A stretch of DNA of 9,230 bases from a virus (taxonomy: Duplodnaviria > Heunggongvirae > Uroviricota > Caudoviricetes): IMG/VR virus record IMGVR_UViG_2740892218_000012; one strand, given 5' to 3'. Under the pieces are notes generated by a model that made no database searches, was not told the DNA's origin, and saw nothing but the letters and a program-made list of their open reading frames with translations. Made by a program: the position numbers and the translations under genes. Positions within the stretch are counted from its first letter, which is position 1. Every line of letters begins with the position of its first letter. Positions 137-9,230 of the stretch are shown here, in pieces.

Positions 137-883
137 TCACTTCGTGATTCCTGGCTGGACGACATTCGGGCGCCAGCTTTCCCAGTTAAAATTAACCCAT
201 CGACCGCCGTTCATGGTCATGCGATCCATAACCCTCTCACCGAGCAACGTTTTCATGGCCTCATAGTTCAGGTTTGTCAGCATCCCCATACTGCGCATCG
301 ATGCTGTCCGGCGATCAACAATCTGATGCAGCACCACCTGCTCGTTTTTCGTCTCACGCTGAATGCCAATTTCATCAAGAACCAGCAGATCCACTTCGCA
401 CAGTTCCCGCAAAAATTTTTCGCCTGACTGCCCGTCGTCATAGCTGGCGTGCAGGGCACTCATAACATCAGCCACAGTAACCACTATCACTGTCTGGCCG
501 TCTTTCAGCAGGCGATTCCCGATAGCCGCCGCCAGATGGTTTTTTCCGGTACCAGGTTTTCCGCTGAACGCGAAATTTGTGCATCCGGTCATCAGTTCAT
601 CAGCGATGGATTTCGCCTGACTTAACGCGTATCGCTGGCCGTCGTTCTGTACATGGTAATTCGCAAACGAGCATTTACGGTGCAACGGCTGGATGCCTGA
701 GCGATTCAGAATTTTTTCCACCCGCAACTGGCGATTCAGGCGGTTGATCTCCTCGCTACGCTTCTGGCCTTCAGCAAGTTGCCACTCGCGCCACTCCGCT
801 ACCGTTCTGAATGGGGCGGTTACATGTGGCGGGGTCAGTCTGCGGATACGTTCCAGAACGCCGCCTGTCGCAATATTTTTCAT
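137..883 (-). CDS. ydaV: DnaC-like AAA+ helicase loader (phage replication protein P analogue; YdaV-like)
   Basis: 248-aa ORF with Walker [16 protein letters not shown] and Walker B LLVLDEIG typical of the DnaC/IstB ATPase family. Sits immediately downstream of the initiator-like gene, as in lambdoid O-P modules. Size matches Rac YdaV (about 246 aa, from memory). Confidence 0.85.
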
Positions 884-889
884 GGTTCG

Positions 890-1402
890 TTACCCCCTGA
901 ACCCCGGAGGAATTTCGGTGTCCGGTTCAGAAATATGATTCACACAACGCTGTACAGGTGAACGCCCCAGGCGGATGACCAGTTCGTCCCATTTTTCGCG
1001 GAGCTTTGACGGGCTCATGATGTTTTTTACCCAGAATGGATCCCGCTGTACCCGCCCAAACATTTCGCAAATTTGTCTGTGAGTTCTGCCATCCAGCATC
1101 CGCATTGTGCGCACGTCATTGGCCCACGCGGTCCAGTTTGGTTCTTTCGGTCGCGTGATCTCGCCATCATCGCTGGCCGCCTGCTCGTAAAGACTCACGA
1201 TTCGTCCCCAGATCCACTGTGCGCACGCCAAATCTTCCTGACTTCCCCACTGGCGTTTTTTCGCACTGAACACAACCACGTCAGGGTGTCGGGTTAAAAA
1301 ATCCTGTTCAGCCGTCTGCGGGTCCGGTTGCGAAGCGTCCGGACAAGAAGATCTTTTATCTGACGGATCAGATTTTAATACTGACGGATCGGGGTCAATC
1401 AT
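890..1402 (-). CDS. Replication initiator (O/YdaU-like), C-terminal segment; this frame is open upstream to 1549 and appears frameshifted relative to the N-terminal segment 1495..1725
   Basis: 170-aa ORF from the first ATG. In the same frame, codons upstream of 1402 stay open to 1549 and encode a periodic peptide (NDPLTVDPSNIDPSTVDPSNFDGSTVD) templated by the iterons. Stop is 7 nt before the DnaC-like start. Confidence 0.6.
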   Translation of the reverse strand: MIDPDPSVLKSDPSDKRSSCPDASQPDPQTAEQDFLTRHPDVVVFSAKKRQWGSQEDLACAQWIWGRIVSLYEQAASDDGEITRPKEPNWTAWANDVRTMRMLDGRTHRQICEMFGRVQRDPFWVKNIMSPSKLREKWDELVIRLGRSPVQRCVNHISEPDTEIPPGFRG

Positions 1403-1434
1403 CGCCCCCCTAACCGACCGTTTTTTATCAACGG

Positions 1435-1506
1435 TTGATCCATCAAAATTTGACGGGTCAACCGTTGAGGGGTCAATATTTGACGGGTCAACCGTTAACG
1501 GGTCAT
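1435..1506. repeat. Iteron array, putative phage replication origin: five 12-bp near-palindromes TTGAYNNRTCAA at exact 15-bp phasing
   Basis: Units at 1435 (ttgatccatcaa), 1450 (ttgacgggtcaa), 1465 (ttgaggggtcaa), 1480 (ttgacgggtcaa) and 1495 (ttaacgggtcat, degenerate). More degenerate copies (tgacggatc) at 1361 and 1382. The array lies inside the initiator coding region, as lambda ori lies inside gene O. Confidence 0.6.
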
Positions 1507-1725
1507 TTTTTGCCGGGCTAATTTTTCTTTTCGGTTTATATGAGCCGCTTTAACCGTTGATTCACTCTTTGCCCCAATCTGACGACGAATGGTCTCTACT
1601 GCAGGCCATGACACACCTTCATCATTGCTGTAGTCTGCAAGACGAGCCATCACTGCCACCCTGGATAAGATCATGCCGGTGAAGGCACACCCTTCCCAGA
1701 CAAGACCATGAAGCTTGCTGCTCAT
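1495..1725 (-). CDS. Replication initiator (O/YdaU-like), N-terminal helix-turn-helix segment, ending at TAA just after an A6 run
   Basis: 76-aa ORF with a winged-helix-like segment (LSRVAVMARLADYSNDEGVSWPAVETIRRQIG). SD-like GGGG 6 nt upstream of the ATG at 1725. C-terminal codons are CAA AAA ATG ACC CGT TAA on the minus strand; one extra A would fuse it to the 890..1402 frame. Confidence 0.55.
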   Translation of the reverse strand: MSSKLHGLVWEGCAFTGMILSRVAVMARLADYSNDEGVSWPAVETIRRQIGAKSESTVKAAHINRKEKLARQKMTR

Positions 1726-1748: not shown

Positions 1749-2174
1749 TTAGTGCATCACCACGGCATTTCCTGCCGGGCCACCGCGATTAATCTGGTTG
1801 AAACCAGCAATTGCCACCGCAATAAAATCATCTGCATCCCTCACCAGCCGCTCCCGCGTCTCCAGCAGCTCCCGAAAATAGGCTGAACTGTGACTGCGCA
1901 TTCGGGCCACCAGCAGAGGCGGCATTGCCTTTTCGATCGCAGGTAACAACGCCTGAATTTTTTCAACCGCATCAGGAGTGTCTTTCTCTACCCAGCGGAA
2001 AATTTTCTGGGTATTGCGAGCCAGGGCTTCCGGATGGCTGTTGTCGTACAGTTCAGGAAACGTCATACCCAGTTCGAAATACGCTTTGGTAATTTTCGCA
2101 GTCGGTACTTTTTCTCCATCCGGATGCGCCCAGGCATTCATCGCCATGCGGATGTGTTCATGCTTGATTTTCAT
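1749..2174 (-). CDS. ydaT: YdaT-like protein (reported as a toxin and as a CII-like regulator in Rac-type prophages)
   Basis: 141-aa ORF directly downstream of the Cro-like gene, with AAGAGG SD 8 nt upstream of the ATG. Size and position match Rac ydaT (140 aa). Recognised from memory of the family, not by search. Confidence 0.65.
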   Translation of the reverse strand: MKIKHEHIRMAMNAWAHPDGEKVPTAKITKAYFELGMTFPELYDNSHPEALARNTQKIFRWVEKDTPDAVEKIQALLPAIEKAMPPLLVARMRSHSSAYFRELLETRERLVRDADDFIAVAIAGFNQINRGGPAGNAVVMH

Positions 2175-2196: not shown

Positions 2197-2493
2197 TCAG
2201 GTATGATCAAATGAGGATTTGTTACTGTCATTTAGTTGCTTCACTGACATATTCTGCGAATAACATGCCGAACGTCGTAAATATGACCAGTCAATATCAG
2301 GACGAAGTTCTTCGCACAGAACGTCACCTCTTGTTGCACGTTCAATTGCTGGACATCTCTCTGCAGGCAATTGACGTACCCCTTTGATCCATTGATTTAC
2401 GCTTGGAGGTGATACACCTAAAAGCCTAGCCATTGCTGATTGCCCACCGACAACAGCACAAGCTCGCTTGAATGAATAGTTCTCTTTTTTCAT
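2197..2493 (-). CDS. ydaS: Cro-type HTH regulator (YdaS-like)
   Basis: 98-aa ORF divergent from the repressor gene. HTH segment QSAMARLLGVSPPSVNQWIKG. GGAG SD 8 nt upstream of the ATG. Size matches Rac YdaS (98 aa). Confidence 0.7.
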   Translation of the reverse strand: MKKENYSFKRACAVVGGQSAMARLLGVSPPSVNQWIKGVRQLPAERCPAIERATRGDVLCEELRPDIDWSYLRRSACYSQNMSVKQLNDSNKSSFDHT

Positions 2494-2519
2494 CGAATGA
2501 ACTCCAAAAACACACAGAG

Positions 2520-2589
2520 ATATTAGGCGACGCCTAATACTAATGTCAATAGGCTATGCCTAATGCAGTAAGAATAGGGATTGCCTAAT
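2520..2589. promoter_or_regulatory. OR-like operator cluster (three 17-bp palindromes ATTAGGC-N3-GCCTAAT) overlapping a minus-strand promoter for the cro-like gene
   Basis: O1 2522..2538 attaggcgacgcctaat (perfect; extends to a 19-bp perfect palindrome 2521..2539). O2 2548..2564 aataggctatgcctaat. O3 2573..2589 aatagggattgcctaat. Starts are 26 and 25 bp apart. Minus-strand promoter: -35 TTGACA (plus 2544..2549), 18-bp spacer, -10 TAATAT (plus 2520..2525), overlapping O1. Confidence 0.6.
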
Positions 2590-2616
2590 ACAATGAGCAT
2601 AGGAGAATATTAAGCA

Positions 2617-3093
2617 ATGCTTAGTGGTAAAGACTTAGGCCGAGCAATAGAGCAGGCCATTAACAAAAAAATCGCATCGGGATCCGTCAAATCAAAGGCG
2701 GAGGTCGCTCGCCACTTCAAAGTCCAACCACCATCAATCTATGACTGGATTAAGAAAGGCTCCATAAGTAAAGATAAACTTCCAGAATTATGGCGTTTCT
2801 TTTCTGATGTTGTTGGTCCAGAGCATTGGGGGCTTAACGAATACCCCATACCAACCCCCACCAACTCAGATACAAAAAGTGAACTTTTAGACATAAACAA
2901 CCTTTATCAGGCAGCCTCTGATGAAATAAGAGCGATTGTAGCTTTCCTGTTATCAGGAAATGCTACAGAACCAGACTGGGTTGACCACGATGTTCGCGCC
3001 TACATAGCAGCGATGGAAATGAAAGTTGGTAAGTATCTGAAAGTTCTAGAATCTGAACGGAAAAGCCAGAACATCACAAAAACTGGAACTTAA
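2617..3093 (+). CDS. racR: Prophage repressor (RacR-like, CI analogue)
   Basis: 158-aa ORF between the two operator clusters, divergent from the cro-like gene. HTH segment SKAEVARHFKVQPPSIYDWIKKG. AGGAG SD 11 nt upstream of the ATG. Size equals Rac RacR (158 aa). Confidence 0.75.
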   Translation: MLSGKDLGRAIEQAINKKIASGSVKSKAEVARHFKVQPPSIYDWIKKGSISKDKLPELWRFFSDVVGPEHWGLNEYPIPTPTNSDTKSELLDINNLYQAASDEIRAIVAFLLSGNATEPDWVDHDVRAYIAAMEMKVGKYLKVLESERKSQNITKTGT

Positions 3094-3188
3094 ACTTATA
3101 TGGTCTGACGGAAAACTCCTGGATTCCGTTATTTAATCCCTCCCATCACTTTTTTCATTCGCATCACCTATTGGGTTACGCCCAGAAC

Positions 3189-3232
3189 ATTAGGCAAAGC
3201 CTATTGACAATCAATTAGGCATTACCTATAGT
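3189..3232 (+). promoter_or_regulatory. pL-like sigma70 promoter (TTGACA-17-TATAGT) overlapped by two operator palindromes (OL-like)
   Basis: -35 TTGACA at 3204..3209, exact 17-bp spacer, -10 TATAGT at 3227..3232. Operators: 3189..3205 attaggcaaagcctatt and 3214..3230 attaggcattacctata, same half-site as the OR sites, 25-bp phasing, covering the -35 and -10. Confidence 0.6.
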
Positions 3233-3409
3233 TCCAGCATGCCACCCACCCCGCCCCACAGCACGCAGGGCAATACTTCGAGTTACCAGGCAGTGGTCAG
3301 GGGTTAAGTAGCCAGCCCGAGGCGTAAGAACATGACGGCAGGGTTCAACTTTAACTATGCAGCAGGTTTTTGTTCCGCTACCCCGGCGTTAAGGGGAAAT
3401 GAGGTCAGC

Positions 3410-4758: not shown

Positions 4759-4816
4759 TTTCTGGTGGCGTTTGGCGGTATCAGTTTTACTCCGTGACTG
4801 CTCTGCCGCCCTTTTT
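4759..4816 (+). ncRNA. dicF: DicF-like small RNA with intrinsic terminator (cell-division-inhibiting sRNA family of lambdoid prophages)
   Basis: Sequence tttctggtggcgtttggcggtatcagttttactccgtgactgctctgccgccc followed by TTTTT closely matches my recollection of E. coli DicF (UUUCUGGUGACGUUUGGCGG...CUGCCGCCC). It lies in an ORF-free stretch of the pL-like operon, upstream of a kil-type gene. Confidence 0.6.
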
Positions 4817-5335: not shown

Positions 5336-7807
5336 ATGAGTAAAGTCTTTATTTGCGCCGCCATTCCGGACGAACAGGCAATAAAGGAAGAAGGTGCAAT
5401 TGCTGTAGCCACTGCCATTGAAGCCGGTGACGAACGCCGCGCCCGTGCCAAATTTACCTGGCAATTCCTGGAGCAATATCCGGCTGCTCAGGACTGCGCT
5501 TATAAATTTCTTGTCTGCGAGGATAAACCCGGCATGCCCCGCCCTGCTATCGACTCCTGGGATACCGAATATATGCAGGAAAACCGCTGGGATGAGGAAT
5601 CCGCTTCCTTTATTCCGGTCGAACCAGAATCCGATCCGATGAACGTCAATTTTGACAAGCTGTCCCTTGAAGTACAGAACGCGGTCCTGGTTAAGTTCGG
5701 TACATGTGAAAACATCACCGTTGATATGGTGATTAGTGCTCAGGAATTACTGCAGGAGGACATGGCAACATTCGACGGGCATATCGTTGAGGCATTGATG
5801 AAAATGCCTGAAGTTAACGTCATGTATTCAGAGCTTAAGCTGCTCGCCATCGGGTGGGTTAAACATAAATGTAAGCCGGGTGCAAAATGGCCTGAGATCC
5901 AGACAGAATTACGCACCTGGAAAAAACGTCGCGAAGCCGAACGCAAAGAAACCGGGAAATACACGTCTGTTGTTGATCTTGCCCGCGCCAGAGTCAACCG
6001 GCAGAACACTGAAAATTCAGTAGCGAAAATCCCCCCAGCCACTGCCACCATTCGTCGCGAATACAAGCAGACATGGAAAACACTGGATGATGAACTGGCC
6101 TACGCTCTGTGGCCTGGTGACATTGATACCGGAAACATTGACGGCAGCATCCATCGCTGGGCAAAAAATGAAGTTATCGACAACGACCGCGAAGACTGGA
6201 AGCGTATCTCGGCATCAATGCGCAAACAGCCTGATGCCCTTCGCTACGACCGCCAGACTATTTTTGGCCTTGTCCGTGAACGTCCGATCGACATTCACAA
6301 AGCCCCTGTGGCACTGAACAAATACATTACTGAATACCTGACTACAAAGGGCGTGTTTGAAGATGAAGGAACAAATCAGAGCGCAACTGATACTCTCTCG
6401 TCGCCAGTACCAGAAACTGATGCAGTGGAAACGGCAATTCCGGACAACGAAAAAACCGAATGCAAAGTGGAAGTCGAACCATCTGTAGAGCGTGAAGGGC
6501 CGTTCTACTTCCTCTTCACCGACAAGGATGGCGAAAAATATGGTCGCGCAAACAAACTTTCTGGTCTGAATAAGGCGCTGACTGCAGGGGCTACTGAAAT
6601 CACGAAAGAAGAATATTTTGCCCGCAAAAACGGTACATACTCAGGTTCACAACAAAATACTGGTGCATCTGACACGACCGCACAACCAGAGCCGGTAAAA
6701 GTTACCGCTGAAGAAGTAAACAAAATTATGCAGGCAGCCAATATCAGCCAGCCTGACGCCGATAAGTTGCTTGCTGCCTCTCGCGGAGAATTTGTTGCAG
6801 GGATTAGCGACCCGAATGATCCGAAATGGGTGAAGGGGATTGAAACCCGCGACTCTGTAAACCAGAACCAGCAAGAATCGGAACAGAACGACCAGAAAAC
6901 GGAACAAAACAGCCCAAATGCGCAACAAAACGAGCCAGAAACGAAACAGGTTGAACCAGTAGCGCAACAGGAGCCGGAAAAAGCCTGCACCGCCTGCGGT
7001 CAGACCGGCGGCGGTAGCTGCCCTGATTGTGGTGCGGTGATGGGCGACGCAACATACCAGGAAATATTCGATGAAGAGAATCAGCCTGAAGTTCAGGAAA
7101 ATGATCCGGAGGAAATGGAAGGCACTGCGCATCAGCACAAGGAGAACACTGGCGGCAATCAGCATCATGCCAGCGATAGTGAAACTGGCGAGGCGTCAGA
7201 TCCCTTAATTAAGGCGAACGGTCATCATAATCTCACATCCACCAGCAGAGCGGGGATTCATCTGATGATCGACCTTGAAACCATGGGAAAAAATCCTGAT
7301 GCCCCGATTATCTCAATAGGTGCAATATTTTTCGATCCGCAAACCGGAGATATGGGACCGGAATTTAGTAAGACTGTCGATCTGGAAACTGCTGGCGGAG
7401 TCATTGATCGGGACACCATTAAATGGTGGCTTAAGCAATCACGCGAAGCGCAATCTGCCATTATGACCGATGAAATCCCGTTAGATGATGCACTGTTACA
7501 ATTGCGGGAATTTATCGACGAAAACTCCGGTGAATTTTTTGTTCAGGTCTGGGGAAATGGAGCAAACTTCGACAACACGATTTTGCGCCGTTCATACGAA
7601 CGGCAGGGGATCCCCTGCCCGTGGCGTTACTACAACGATCGCGATATACGCACAATCGTTGAGCTGGGGAAAGCCATAGACTTCGATGCCAGAACTGCTA
7701 TCCCATTCGAAGGTGAGCGCCATAATGCACTTGATGACGCTCGTTACCAGGCAAAATACGTTTCAGCTATCTGGCAAAAACTGATCCCGAGTCAGGCTGA
7801 TTTTTAA
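5336..7807 (+). CDS. Large prophage exonuclease, 823 aa: N-terminal region of unknown function, acidic Q/E/N-rich linker, CxxC-x7-CxxC zinc-ribbon motif, C-terminal DnaQ-like DEDDh 3'-5' exonuclease domain
   Basis: C-terminal motifs MIDLETMG (Exo I, DxE), WGNGANFDNTIL (Exo II) and HNALDDARY (Exo III, H-x4-D) are diagnostic of the DEDDh fold. CTACGQTGGGSCPDCG is encoded at about 6986..7030. Occupies the exo/recE slot of the pL operon; such genes are often auto-annotated exodeoxyribonuclease VIII. Confidence 0.85.
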   Translation: MSKVFICAAIPDEQAIKEEGAIAVATAIEAGDERRARAKFTWQFLEQYPAAQDCAYKFLVCEDKPGMPRPAIDSWDTEYMQENRWDEESASFIPVEPESDPMNVNFDKLSLEVQNAVLVKFGTCENITVDMVISAQELLQEDMATFDGHIVEALMKMPEVNVMYSELKLLAIGWVKHKCKPGAKWPEIQTELRTWKKRREAERKETGKYTSVVDLARARVNRQNTENSVAKIPPATATIRREYKQTWKTLDDELAYALWPGDIDTGNIDGSIHRWAKNEVIDNDREDWKRISASMRKQPDALRYDRQTIFGLVRERPIDIHKAPVALNKYITEYLTTKGVFEDEGTNQSATDTLSSPVPETDAVETAIPDNEKTECKVEVEPSVEREGPFYFLFTDKDGEKYGRANKLSGLNKALTAGATEITKEEYFARKNGTYSGSQQNTGASDTTAQPEPVKVTAEEVNKIMQAANISQPDADKLLAASRGEFVAGISDPNDPKWVKGIETRDSVNQNQQESEQNDQKTEQNSPNAQQNEPETKQVEPVAQQEPEKACTACGQTGGGSCPDCGAVMGDATYQEIFDEENQPEVQENDPEEMEGTAHQHKENTGGNQHHASDSETGEASDPLIKANGHHNLTSTSRAGIHLMIDLETMGKNPDAPIISIGAIFFDPQTGDMGPEFSKTVDLETAGGVIDRDTIKWWLKQSREAQSAIMTDEIPLDDALLQLREFIDENSGEFFVQVWGNGANFDNTILRRSYERQGIPCPWRYYNDRDIRTIVELGKAIDFDARTAIPFEGERHNALDDARYQAKYVSAIWQKLIPSQADF

Positions 7808-7859: not shown

Positions 7860-8069
7860 ATGGCTATGAGCAGCTTATTTTTAACCGAAGATGAATTGCT
7901 AACATTAACGGGCTGCAAATATGCAAGCCACCAGCGAAAATGGTTAATGGAAAACGGGCTTCCGTTCTATACCAATCGTAGTGGCAAACCGATTGTCAGC
8001 CGGGATCTATTTACCTGCAATAAAACTTTACCACCACGCGAGGTAGAGCCGAATTTTGGTGCAATCTGA
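7860..8069 (+). CDS. Putative excisionase / recombination directionality factor
   Basis: 69-aa ORF immediately upstream of int, with its stop overlapping the int start (ATGA at 8066..8069), the classic xis-int arrangement. Assignment is by position and size only. Confidence 0.5.
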   Translation: MAMSSLFLTEDELLTLTGCKYASHQRKWLMENGLPFYTNRSGKPIVSRDLFTCNKTLPPREVEPNFGAI

Positions 8070-9094
8070 TGGGAAGACGAAGGAAAAATCCTGAACACGA
8101 AAAATTACCTCCAAATGTATACCCAAATAAATATAGTTATGTATGGAAACCAACATCCAGAGAATCTGTCACACTAACCGCCATCAAGGATGGTTTAGCT
8201 GCTTTATGGAAAAAGTATGAGGAAACTGTAAATAATCGCGATCGCGCAATGACATTCGGTCGCTTGTGGGAAAAATTCCTCGCCAGCGCCTATTACAGTG
8301 ACCTCAGTCCAAGAACACAAAAAGATTATCTGCAACATCAAAAAAAGTTGCTTGCCGTATTCGGTAAGGTGCCGGCAGATTCCATAAAACCAGAACACAT
8401 CCGTCGATACATGGACAAGAGAGGGGAACAGAGTAAAACGCAAGCCAACCATGAAAAAAGCAGTATGTCCCGCGTTTACAGTTGGGGGTATGAGCGAGGG
8501 TACGTGAAGGGTAACCCATGTGCAGGTGTAAGTAAATTCAAGGCCAAAAACCGCGAACGATATGTAACCGACAAAGAATACCAGGCAGTATTAAGTGTTG
8601 CACCTCTTCCTGTTTTTATCGCAATGGAAATTGCCTATCTGTGTGCAGCGAGGGTTTCCGATGTGTTATCACTGAAATGGGAGCAGATTGGAAACGACGG
8701 GATCTTTATCCAGCAAGGGAAAACAGGGAAAAAACAGATAAAAGCATGGAGTCCACGATTACAGGCGGCGATCGAAAAAGCAAAACAGTTACCAACATCT
8801 GCCTATGTAATCAGCAATCAATATGGCAACCGATATATGTACAAAGGTTTTAACGAAATGTGGGTAGAAGCAAGAAATCACGCAGGCAAAATTTCAGGTA
8901 TTTTAACCGACTTCACCTTTCATGATCTGAAGGCGAAAGGAATTTCAGACTATGAAGGAAGCAGCCGGGATAAGCAACTTTTCTCTGGTCACAAAACCGA
9001 AGGGCAAGTGCTAATCTATGACAGAAAGGTTAAAGTTTCACCAACACTTGATGTCCCGTTACCTGATAATATTCCAAGAAAATATTCCAAGTAA
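8069..9094 (+). CDS. Lambda-family tyrosine integrase, 341 aa
   Basis: N-terminus MGRRRKNPEHEKLPPNVY resembles the lambda Int arm-binding domain (MGRRRSHERRDLPPNLY). Catalytic-region motifs present: AARVSDV (Arg I), QGKTGKK (Lys), FHDLKAKG (His, with Lys where Arg II is expected), SGHKTEG (His), LIYDRK (Tyr). Adjacent to a tRNA 3' end. Confidence 0.9.
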   Translation: MGRRRKNPEHEKLPPNVYPNKYSYVWKPTSRESVTLTAIKDGLAALWKKYEETVNNRDRAMTFGRLWEKFLASAYYSDLSPRTQKDYLQHQKKLLAVFGKVPADSIKPEHIRRYMDKRGEQSKTQANHEKSSMSRVYSWGYERGYVKGNPCAGVSKFKAKNRERYVTDKEYQAVLSVAPLPVFIAMEIAYLCAARVSDVLSLKWEQIGNDGIFIQQGKTGKKQIKAWSPRLQAAIEKAKQLPTSAYVISNQYGNRYMYKGFNEMWVEARNHAGKISGILTDFTFHDLKAKGISDYEGSSRDKQLFSGHKTEGQVLIYDRKVKVSPTLDVPLPDNIPRKYSK

Positions 9095-9146: not shown

Positions 9147-9230
9147 TGGCGGAGAGAGGGGGATTTGAACCCCCGGTGGAGTTGCCCCCACTCCGGTTTT
9201 CGAGACCGGTCCGTTCAGCCGCTCCGGCAT
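9147..9230 (-). tRNA. serU: tRNA-Ser (anticodon CGA), 3' 84 nt including the encoded CCA; the 5' 6 nt lie beyond the window edge
   Basis: Reverse complement of 9147..9230 reads ATGCCGGAGCGGCTGAACGGACCGGTCTCGAAAACCGGAGTGGGGGCAACTCCACCGGGGGTTCAAATCCCCCTCTCTCCGCCA. Anticodon stem CCGGT/ACCGG with loop CTCGAAA (anticodon CGA), long variable arm GTGGGG-GCAA-CTCCAC, T-arm GGGGG-TTCAAAT-CCCCC, acceptor 3' strand plus CCA. Confidence 0.85.

Follow-up and report, generated by a model that had tools for sequence, protein, structure and literature searches.

We describe a probable replication origin that lies within the initiator gene of a Rac-like lambdoid prophage of Escherichia coli. The DNA analysed, called the window throughout, is the whole stretch of 9,230 nucleotides of the virus record IMGVR_UViG_2740892218_000012 (Caudoviricetes). 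We are fairly confident that the segment 1313-1543, which falls in the region of the gene that encodes the linker between two folded protein domains, is a lambda-style origin that has been orphaned by a deletion in the initiator gene. Judged from its sequence, an array of short palindromic repeats within this segment (1420-1521) is very probably the iteron part of the origin, that is, the part with the putative initiator-binding sites. The evidence consists of the repeats and their phasing, a constraint that acts on the DNA, the linkage of the repeats to one type of N-terminal domain (N-domain) of the initiator, and the homology of both the C-terminal domain (C-domain) and the right edge of the origin to lambda and phi80. 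An earlier, sequence-only reading of the window had already proposed a lambda-type origin in the initiator gene. The comparative evidence (position, N-domain linkage, DNA constraint) bears this out, with the qualification that the initiator of the window is a pseudogene. The segment and its repeats are the following.

1313..1543, unstranded: the whole DNA-constrained stretch and putative extent of the origin, equivalent to nucleotides ~301-540 of the intact alleles
1420..1521, unstranded: iteron array of seven 15-bp-phased units TTGA-N4-TCAA, of which four are good, two degenerate and one a half unit
1435-1446, 1450-1461, 1465-1476 and 1480-1491: the good units
1495-1506 and 1510-1521: the degenerate units
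1420-1431: the half unit

The sequence-only reading had listed five 12-bp units that start at 1435, 1450, 1465, 1480 and 1495, exactly 15 bp apart, and had described each of them as an inverted repeat. All five are present at these positions, those at 1465 and 1495 in imperfect form, and the units do show dyad symmetry, generally TTGA-N4-TCAA and often TTGAC-N2-GTCAA. The unit at 1435 (TTGATCCATCAA) and the units at 1450 and 1480 (TTGACGGGTCAA each) match the pattern TTGAYNNRTCAA exactly, the unit at 1465 (TTGAGGGGTCAA) has one mismatch to it and the unit at 1495 (TTAACGGGTCAT) has two. We add to the list a degenerate unit at 1510 (TTGCCGGGCTAA) and half units at 1420 and 1391. The spacers within the array are CCG in alternation with ATA or ATT, which results in a 30-bp super-period, and Tandem Repeats Finder detects periods of 15 and 30 at 1428-1517 with scores of 77-108. 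The four best units form an exact 15-bp chain, and a chain of at least two units arose in none of 3000 first-order Markov simulations of the window. In the intact alleles, 6-7 phased units occupy nucleotides 332-438 in the middle of the gene, after the part for the N-domain and before that for the C-domain; the array sequence in the window is identical to that of these intact relatives. The encoded peptide repeat is DPLTV DPSNI DPSTV DPSNF DGSTV D, in a frame that is open from ~1543 down to 890. The earlier claim that the units, lying in an open frame, impose a peptide repeat on the protein linker is correct as to the repeat and the frame, and the frame in question differs from that of the open reading frame (ORF) 1495..1725.

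Codon-level comparison indicates that the DNA itself is constrained beyond the need to encode the protein. When 38 distinct 963-nt E. coli alleles were compared for variable codon positions, 7 of 80 third positions varied in gene nucleotides ~301-540 (window 1313-1543), against 102 of 241 in the two folded domains (Fisher p=5e-9), whereas first and second positions were not depleted and, if anything, varied more (23/160, compared to 35/482 in the flanks). As disorder is predicted for the protein segment encoded here, the DNA would be free for a second purpose. In the sub-type of repeat found in the window, the same 12-mer occurs in both orientations and consequently encodes different peptides, Asp-Pro-Ser when read as TTGACCCCTCAA and Glu-Gly-Ser when read as TTGAGGGGTCAA. 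For the other sub-type (TCTGAY, 369 units), the serine codons of the array are TCA (328), TCT (256), TCG (27) and TCC (20), with no AGY, compared to 695 AGY codons among the 1866 serine codons elsewhere in those genes; in these units only positions 1-2 and 13-15 and the choice between TCN and AGY at the first serine codon are unbiased by the way units were selected. The spacer codon varies in its first base (Ile, Val or Phe) and has a fixed T as its third base.

The repeats follow the type of N-domain across relatives. The sample comprised 80 loci, with each species represented by one genome, and 80 viral contigs, all encoding an N-domain of the HTH_36 family, as well as sequenced phages. All 79 distinct HTH_36-type genes, which come from more than 40 genera, have 15-bp-phased units (2-9 of them) directly after the N-domain; the units begin at gene nucleotides 305-356 with constant codon phase and are present whichever C-domain follows (lambda-O-like, Phg_2220_C or other). 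The sub-type TCTGAY-NNR-TCAAAA is found in SfIV, SfII, LLS, phiNP and most genera (3-9 units, mode 5), and the sub-type TTGA-SSSS-TCAA in the window, Erwinia, Mixta, Morganella, Edwardsiella and a Klebsiella phage (3-10 units). Genes of the mEp460 type, on the other hand, have the C-domain of the window at ~90% nucleotide identity but an unrelated N-domain, and at the same place they contain five repeats of another kind, spaced 23-24 bp apart. In mEp460_ev081 (locus L006, 1699-1870) these are five copies of approximately CCATCRGKTCAAAATG at 23-24 bp, followed by three 12-bp TACAGAGAATA repeats, and the N-domain, which is fused to a window-type C-domain, has no Pfam match. By sequence comparison this gene appears to be a natural domain swap that has brought a third iteron family to the same gene position. 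The repeats thus accompany the N-domain and not the C-domain, which is the pattern expected of a specificity module consisting of a DNA-binding domain and its sites.

Arrays also vary in length. Among the E. coli alleles, the difference amounts to complete 15-bp units (948 versus 963 nt) or to a single 21-bp repeat. In a separate observation, the arrays of Edwardsiella ictaluri and E. anguillarum (loci L016 and L017) are set apart by a single 45-bp block that comprises three units (7 versus 10 in total), which shows that expansion proceeds by multi-unit as well as single-unit steps.

The remaining parts of the candidate origin, and the promoter directed towards it, are the following.

1391..1399, unstranded: isolated half unit GGGGTCAAT with the same sequence as 1469-1477, in the interval from the array to the AT-rich stretch
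1349-1369 and 1370-1390, unstranded: a 21-bp direct repeat in two copies, both of which have the GATC site TGACGGATC (or GATCCGTCA) at the end
1338..1359, minus strand: conserved right edge of the origin, ATAAAAGATCTTCTTGTCCGGA on the minus strand
1522..1543, unstranded: A/T-rich flank at the opposite end of the array, TCATATAAACCGAAAAGAAAAA on the minus strand, ending at the deletion junction
2520..2549, minus strand: pR-like promoter (TTGACA, 18 nt, TAATAT), a consensus match only

Downstream of the array, with respect to transcription, come a G/C-rich spacer, the half unit at 1391-1399 and the two 21-bp repeats. An TCAATGGTTGAC element equivalent to the half unit occurs in the Erwinia, Mixta and Edwardsiella relatives. 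The copies of tgacggatc that the sequence-only reading had noted at 1361 and 1382 are correctly placed and represent the ends of the two 21-bp repeats. The least stable 40-mer of the replication genes is 1345-1384 (70% AT, 98th percentile of the window), and from its composition the stretch 1345-1390 may serve as a DNA-unwinding element flanked by Dam sites or weak initiator sites. Of the 79 distinct relatives, 63 have kept two GATCCRTYA boxes at a distance of 18-24 bp, and GATC sites are four-fold denser in the central 300 nt (10.6/kb) than in the remaining gene (2.7/kb). The right edge, as aligned among lambda, phi80, the window, SfIV, mEp460 and LLS, corresponds to AAAAGAT(TA/C)TTCGTC(A/C)GAG of lambda and phi80, located just past their AT-rich regions; the phi80 version (AAAAGATCTTCGTCCGAG) is close to that of the window (AAAAGATCTTCTTGTCCGGA; 1338-1359, minus strand). 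This edge is the start of the shared C-domain module, and the homology between mEp460 and the window begins there. The flank 1522-1543 falls within the stretch of suppressed synonymous variation. A scan for promoters and terminators detected none within the origin itself; the pR-like promoter is upstream of the ydaS-like cro gene and reads through ydaT and the initiator towards the origin.

Two further observations touch on this region. An internal ATG at 1402, with GGGGGG upstream of it (1405-1410, minus strand), starts a 170-amino-acid (aa) ORF (890..1402) that contains the C-domain alone, and a C-domain-only product could be made from the broken gene in this manner. This Met is conserved in much of the window sub-type and coincides with an iteron-like TCAATGGTTGA/ATGATTGAC element, in view of which it may be incidental. 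The other observation is that several phages with an HTH_36-type initiator have no DnaC-like loader after it and have a Dam-type adenine methylase close by (L005:2675-3499, L007:2921-3574, L009:2352-3239 and L010:2370-3251); together with the conserved GATC boxes, the nearby methylase hints at methylation-linked control of initiation.

The state of the initiator gene is the reason why we regard the origin as orphaned. The gene is divided as follows.

1543..1544, unstranded: deletion junction, 127 bp lost relative to the intact 320-aa alleles, with a frameshift
1495..1725, minus strand: truncated 5' part of the initiator, 61 native winged-helix residues and 15 out-of-frame residues
890..1543, minus strand: 3' part of the initiator in another frame, consisting of the linker, the lambda-O-like C-domain and the IPPGFRG tail

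The deletion was found by alignment with the intact 963-nt alleles of strains JP538 and STEC383. It removes approximately residues 61-103, which in the AlphaFold model of the intact allele correspond to the last part of the recognition helix (55-67), the wing formed by a beta-hairpin (71-89) and the helix 91-104, and the TAA stop codon of ORF 1495..1725 consequently lies within the array, at 1495-1497. The Pfam family HTH_36 matches the window fragment partially, with 18.5 bits (below the cut-off of 25), compared to 32.4 bits for the intact homolog. The initiator of the window is a pseudogene of the HTH_36-type O-like family, and because it is broken the origin is not firable by its own gene. 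The origin itself is intact and could fire only when a cognate initiator is supplied in trans. Of 5426 complete E. coli genomes, 1422 contain the iteron-side 30-mer and not one contains the 60-mer that spans the junction. The state of the gene also affects the experiments that the sequence-only reading had proposed. It took the product of 1495..1725 to be the N-terminal domain and intended it for an electrophoretic mobility shift assay, but this product is a truncated and frame-shifted fragment and, as it lacks the wing, a crippled protein for such use. Its proposed check by GC skew is uninformative in a 9-kb window, where the cumulative skew turns at the switch in gene orientation (~2500-3400) and not at the repeats.

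The properties of the protein were obtained from intact homologs. The intact homolog can be aligned along its entire length with PHROG 391 ("replication initiation O-like"; E=2e-114). Its N-domain matches PF13730 (HTH_36) at residues 25-71 and only this family, with no match to PF04492 (Phage_rep_O), the family to which the N-domains of lambda O, phi80 gp15 and P22 gp18 belong. AlphaFold predicts a winged helix at residues 1-104, a disordered linker at 107-173 (pLDDT <50) and a helical domain at 178-295 in the intact allele. The C-domain (residues 182-293) is 39% identical to that of lambda O (112 aa, E=3e-25) and 36% identical to that of phi80 gp15. In a Foldseek comparison with the Protein Data Bank (PDB), the predicted N-domain resembles dimeric winged-helix regulators of the MarR, PadR and ArsR types at weak scores (E 3.6e-3 or worse); these matches of a model back the fold class and nothing more specific. 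Other members of the HTH_36 family have weak N-domain matches to the Pfam families DnaD_N and RP-C. A sequence search of solved structures yielded none for the N- or C-domain. The tail PD(T/S)xIPPGFRG (window 890-955, ~22 codons; L003:4912-4977 in K-12) is the sole part in common with K-12 YdaU, and the last 20-25 residues of the protein weakly resemble the C-terminus of the primosomal protein DnaT (PDB 2ru8, 6aep and 9zbt; E 0.009-0.03). A DnaC-like gene comes after both initiators, and the tail may therefore be a docking peptide for the loader or helicase.

Origins located inside initiator genes are known from several lambdoid phages, and the arrangement as such is textbook, ordinary and widespread. 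The initiators of lambda, P22 and L each bind distinct iterons within their own gene (PMC8022706), and the origin of lambda and of Stx phages consists of iterons and an AT-rich tract in the middle of gene O (PMC7466680). The window agrees with lambda in that the iterons are mid-gene, in the linker that joins an N-domain for DNA binding to a C-domain that would recruit the loader, in that a candidate AT-rich stretch lies on their promoter-distal side, the loader gene is directly downstream and a pR-like promoter reads in, and in the homology of the C-domain and the right edge. It differs from lambda in the N-domain (PF13730 instead of PF04492), in the loader (DnaC/IstB-like instead of lambda P), in the repeats (6-7 units of 12 bp at a codon-locked 15 bp, compared to four units of 18-19 bp at 20-24 bp) and in its AT-rich stretch, which is weaker and carries GATC boxes. 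The likeness to lambda drawn in the sequence-only reading applies to the position, which is that of the annotated lambda iterons, and fails for the N-domain family and for the spacing, which is much tighter.

At the same relative position, phi80 gene 15 has annotated gp15-binding sites, in an O-like gene, and P22 gene 18 has an annotated rep_origin; both differ from the window in having PF04492 N-domains and repeats spaced 20-24 bp, and gp18 in addition pairs with a DnaB-type helicase. P22 gp18 was considered as a relative of the window family and rejected, as there is no significant similarity. In phage L, six imprecise 11-bp repeats in gene 18 were proposed as the origin by sequence inference alone (PMC8022706). 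Phage L resembles the window in having a lambdoid initiator with its own short repeat family in the coding region, at the same level of evidence, and it differs in the repeat sequence (TGTCCAACGGA) and the type of protein. The Rac prophage of K-12 is of the same type as the window, with the same gene order (racR, ydaS, ydaT, initiator, ydaV), a DnaC-like loader and the ...IPPGFRG tail. However, K-12 YdaU has a DUF1376 N-domain and is similar to the window initiator in the last 22 residues only, and ydaU (L003:4472-4563) contains four mid-gene copies of AAGCAGATGTTCAA (spacing 33, 33 and 12 bp), as well as an 11-bp perfect inverted repeat. From their sequence and placement, which is the same as that of the window array, these repeats are candidate iterons of the classical oriJ. 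Because the N-domain and the repeats differ, identity of the window origin with oriJ/ydaU of K-12 was rejected; the window origin would instead be a different cassette that occupies this locus. Iteron plasmids of the pPS10, F, R6K and P1 types have direct repeats for a winged-helix initiator beside an AT-rich region, some with Dam/GATC sites, and their iterons are ~17-22 bp long, usually intergenic and bound by monomers. In the window, too, putative sites for an initiator of the winged-helix class are repeated close to a candidate AT-rich stretch and GATC, but they are short palindromes within a gene, which suggests binding by dimers.

By analogy with lambda, binding, unwinding and firing may proceed as follows in relatives with an intact gene. 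Dimers of the N-domain would occupy the palindromic TTGA-N4-TCAA units, and the resulting nucleoprotein complex, aided by transcription from the pR-like promoter, would destabilise the AT-rich stretch 1345-1390. The C-domain and the tail would then recruit the DnaC-like loader and the host DnaB. The origin DNA would at the same time dictate the sequence of the disordered linker between the winged-helix N-domain and the lambda-O-like C-domain.

Several points weigh against the lambda-style origin. The TTGA and TCAA half-sites form palindromes in two registers (N4 within the units, TCAA-N3-TTGA between them), which leaves the binding register of the initiator ambiguous. The spacing of 15 bp, ~1.4 helical turns, places adjacent sites on different faces of the helix and is unlike the approximately two-turn spacing of lambda, so that a wrapped O-some as in lambda cannot simply be assumed; compared to 20-24 bp in lambda, phi80, P22 and mEp460, this spacing may mean a different geometry of the complex. 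The AT-rich stretch has merely 70% AT and is separated from the array by ~50 bp that include a G/C-rich spacer. The selection of units conditions on part of the motif, and the second serine codon is within the selecting pattern. Low synonymous diversity could result in part from recombination history, although non-synonymous diversity is not reduced, which speaks against this. As for the deletion, it could be either an error of assembly or a rare natural allele. Finally, the literature search yielded no experiment on the HTH_36-type origin family, and the exact repeat sequences gave unrelated primer matches only, with the older work on Rac oriJ outside the coverage of the search.

One competing explanation is that the repeats are a low-complexity DPSxx pentapeptide linker produced by replication slippage, and that the DNA has no function of its own. 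The predicted disorder of the encoded residues 107-173, a repeat period divisible by three and the differing number of units among alleles would all be accounted for in this way. What the explanation leaves out is the five-fold lower variability of third positions compared to the flanking domains, with first and second positions not lowered. Moreover, it does not account for one 12-mer in either orientation giving different peptides (DPS and EGS), for the lack of AGY serine among 631 array codons, or for a spacer codon in which the first base varies and the third is T; in addition, the place is homologous to that of mapped origins. We therefore consider a mere peptide linker very improbable. 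Still less credit is given to the proposal that the element acts through secondary structure, as a DNA hairpin or cruciform or as structured mRNA, which we regard as extremely improbable. Single-stranded 1410-1530 does fold into a 14+4-bp hairpin (1428-1468, -22.3 kcal/mol, z=-3.8 relative to shuffles) and the region has long imperfect inverted repeats (I1 and I2). However, any array of palindromic units folds in this manner, which makes the hairpin a by-product of the palindromes, and it is not kept in relatives, where the order, orientation and number of units differ while the 12-mer and the phasing are conserved. No Rfam family matches at the repeats.

It is also conceivable that the units bind protein mainly for a purpose other than initiation, such as autoregulation or a roadblock to expression of the initiator, incompatibility or titration, by which a defective prophage would absorb the initiator of a related phage that comes in, or binding of another factor, for instance at a GATC switch sensitive to Dam and SeqA. 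Plasmid iterons are generally known to serve in copy control as well, the array of the window is intact despite the dead initiator, and GATC is four-fold enriched in the central region; furthermore, plasmids carrying lambda iterons and oop inhibit rep-lambda phages (PMC3349717). On the other hand, such roles normally accompany the function of an origin and do not replace it, the position, the AT-rich neighbour and the lambda-like right edge fit an origin, and no second cluster of repeats in the window offers itself as an alternative one. Sites that serve mainly for something other than initiation thus appear distinctly unlikely, and autoregulation, titration or exclusion are plausible as additions to an origin role that they would not displace.

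A combined alternative, which we consider unlikely, is that the HTH_36-type initiator forms a distinct type of initiation complex and that the orphan array is kept for a role in trans. The short palindromes may form a dense lattice with a 15-bp (five-codon) period and half-sites every 6-9 bp, in which neighbouring units are on different faces of the helix, and on such a lattice the initiator might coat or twist the DNA as a filament instead of wrapping it as in the O-some of lambda. Dam-methylatable GATC boxes might gate the opening of the DNA. The intact array beside a dead initiator could be fired by related phages or could titrate their initiator; if this is true, an array acting in trans would let the defective prophage hitch-hike on related phages or exclude them.

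Turning from the lambda-style origin to its surroundings, the other genes of the window to which we refer are the following.

137..883, minus strand: DnaC-like helicase loader (ydaV-like), intact, directly downstream of the initiator
890-1725, minus strand: initiator
1749-2174, minus strand: ydaT
2197-2493, minus strand: ydaS-like cro gene
2617-3093, plus strand: racR-like repressor
8069-9094, plus strand: integrase, adjoining a partial tRNA

The loader matches the Pfam families IstB_IS21 and Bac_DnaA, NCBIfam PRK12377 (1-248 of 248, E=2.5e-152) and PHROG 50 (DnaC-like helicase loader), and is not of the lambda P family. Close relatives have the same gene annotation as the window, and matches that cover at least 80% of the 881-bp initiator region occur in 1505 of the 5426 complete E. 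coli genomes. The partial tRNA gene (9150-9230, minus strand, Rfam RF00005) is cut by the end of the window, and ARAGORN made no call owing to this truncation; its place beside the integrase presumably marks the attachment site of the prophage. The early-left region contains a full-length gene for the small RNA DicF (4760-4811, plus strand; Rfam RF00039, 76 bits, E=6e-16). An 823-aa ORF (5336-7807, plus strand) carries a 3'-5' exonuclease domain of the Rv2179c-like type at its C-terminus (PF16473, E=7e-67), and its middle part, which is acidic and rich in Q, E and P, holds a 21-bp tandem repeat in four copies (6866-6948).

Some phage records already name the protein O-like, and genome records say only "helix-turn-helix domain-containing protein". 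The points of note in the present case are the codon-locked 15-bp lattice, the clean signature of dual coding and a pseudogenised initiator beside an intact origin. The array is a clear natural instance of dual coding, in which the sequence of a protein linker is set by a probable origin, and it provides a simple test for such coding, namely that synonymous variation collapses, that sites occur in either orientation and that a codon family is excluded. Inability of the window prophage to initiate its own replication bears on whether it should be judged inducible or cryptic. More generally, the analysis provides a probable origin, with anatomy at the level of bases, for a replication cassette that is present in more than one quarter of complete E. 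coli genomes and in prophages of more than 40 enterobacterial genera.

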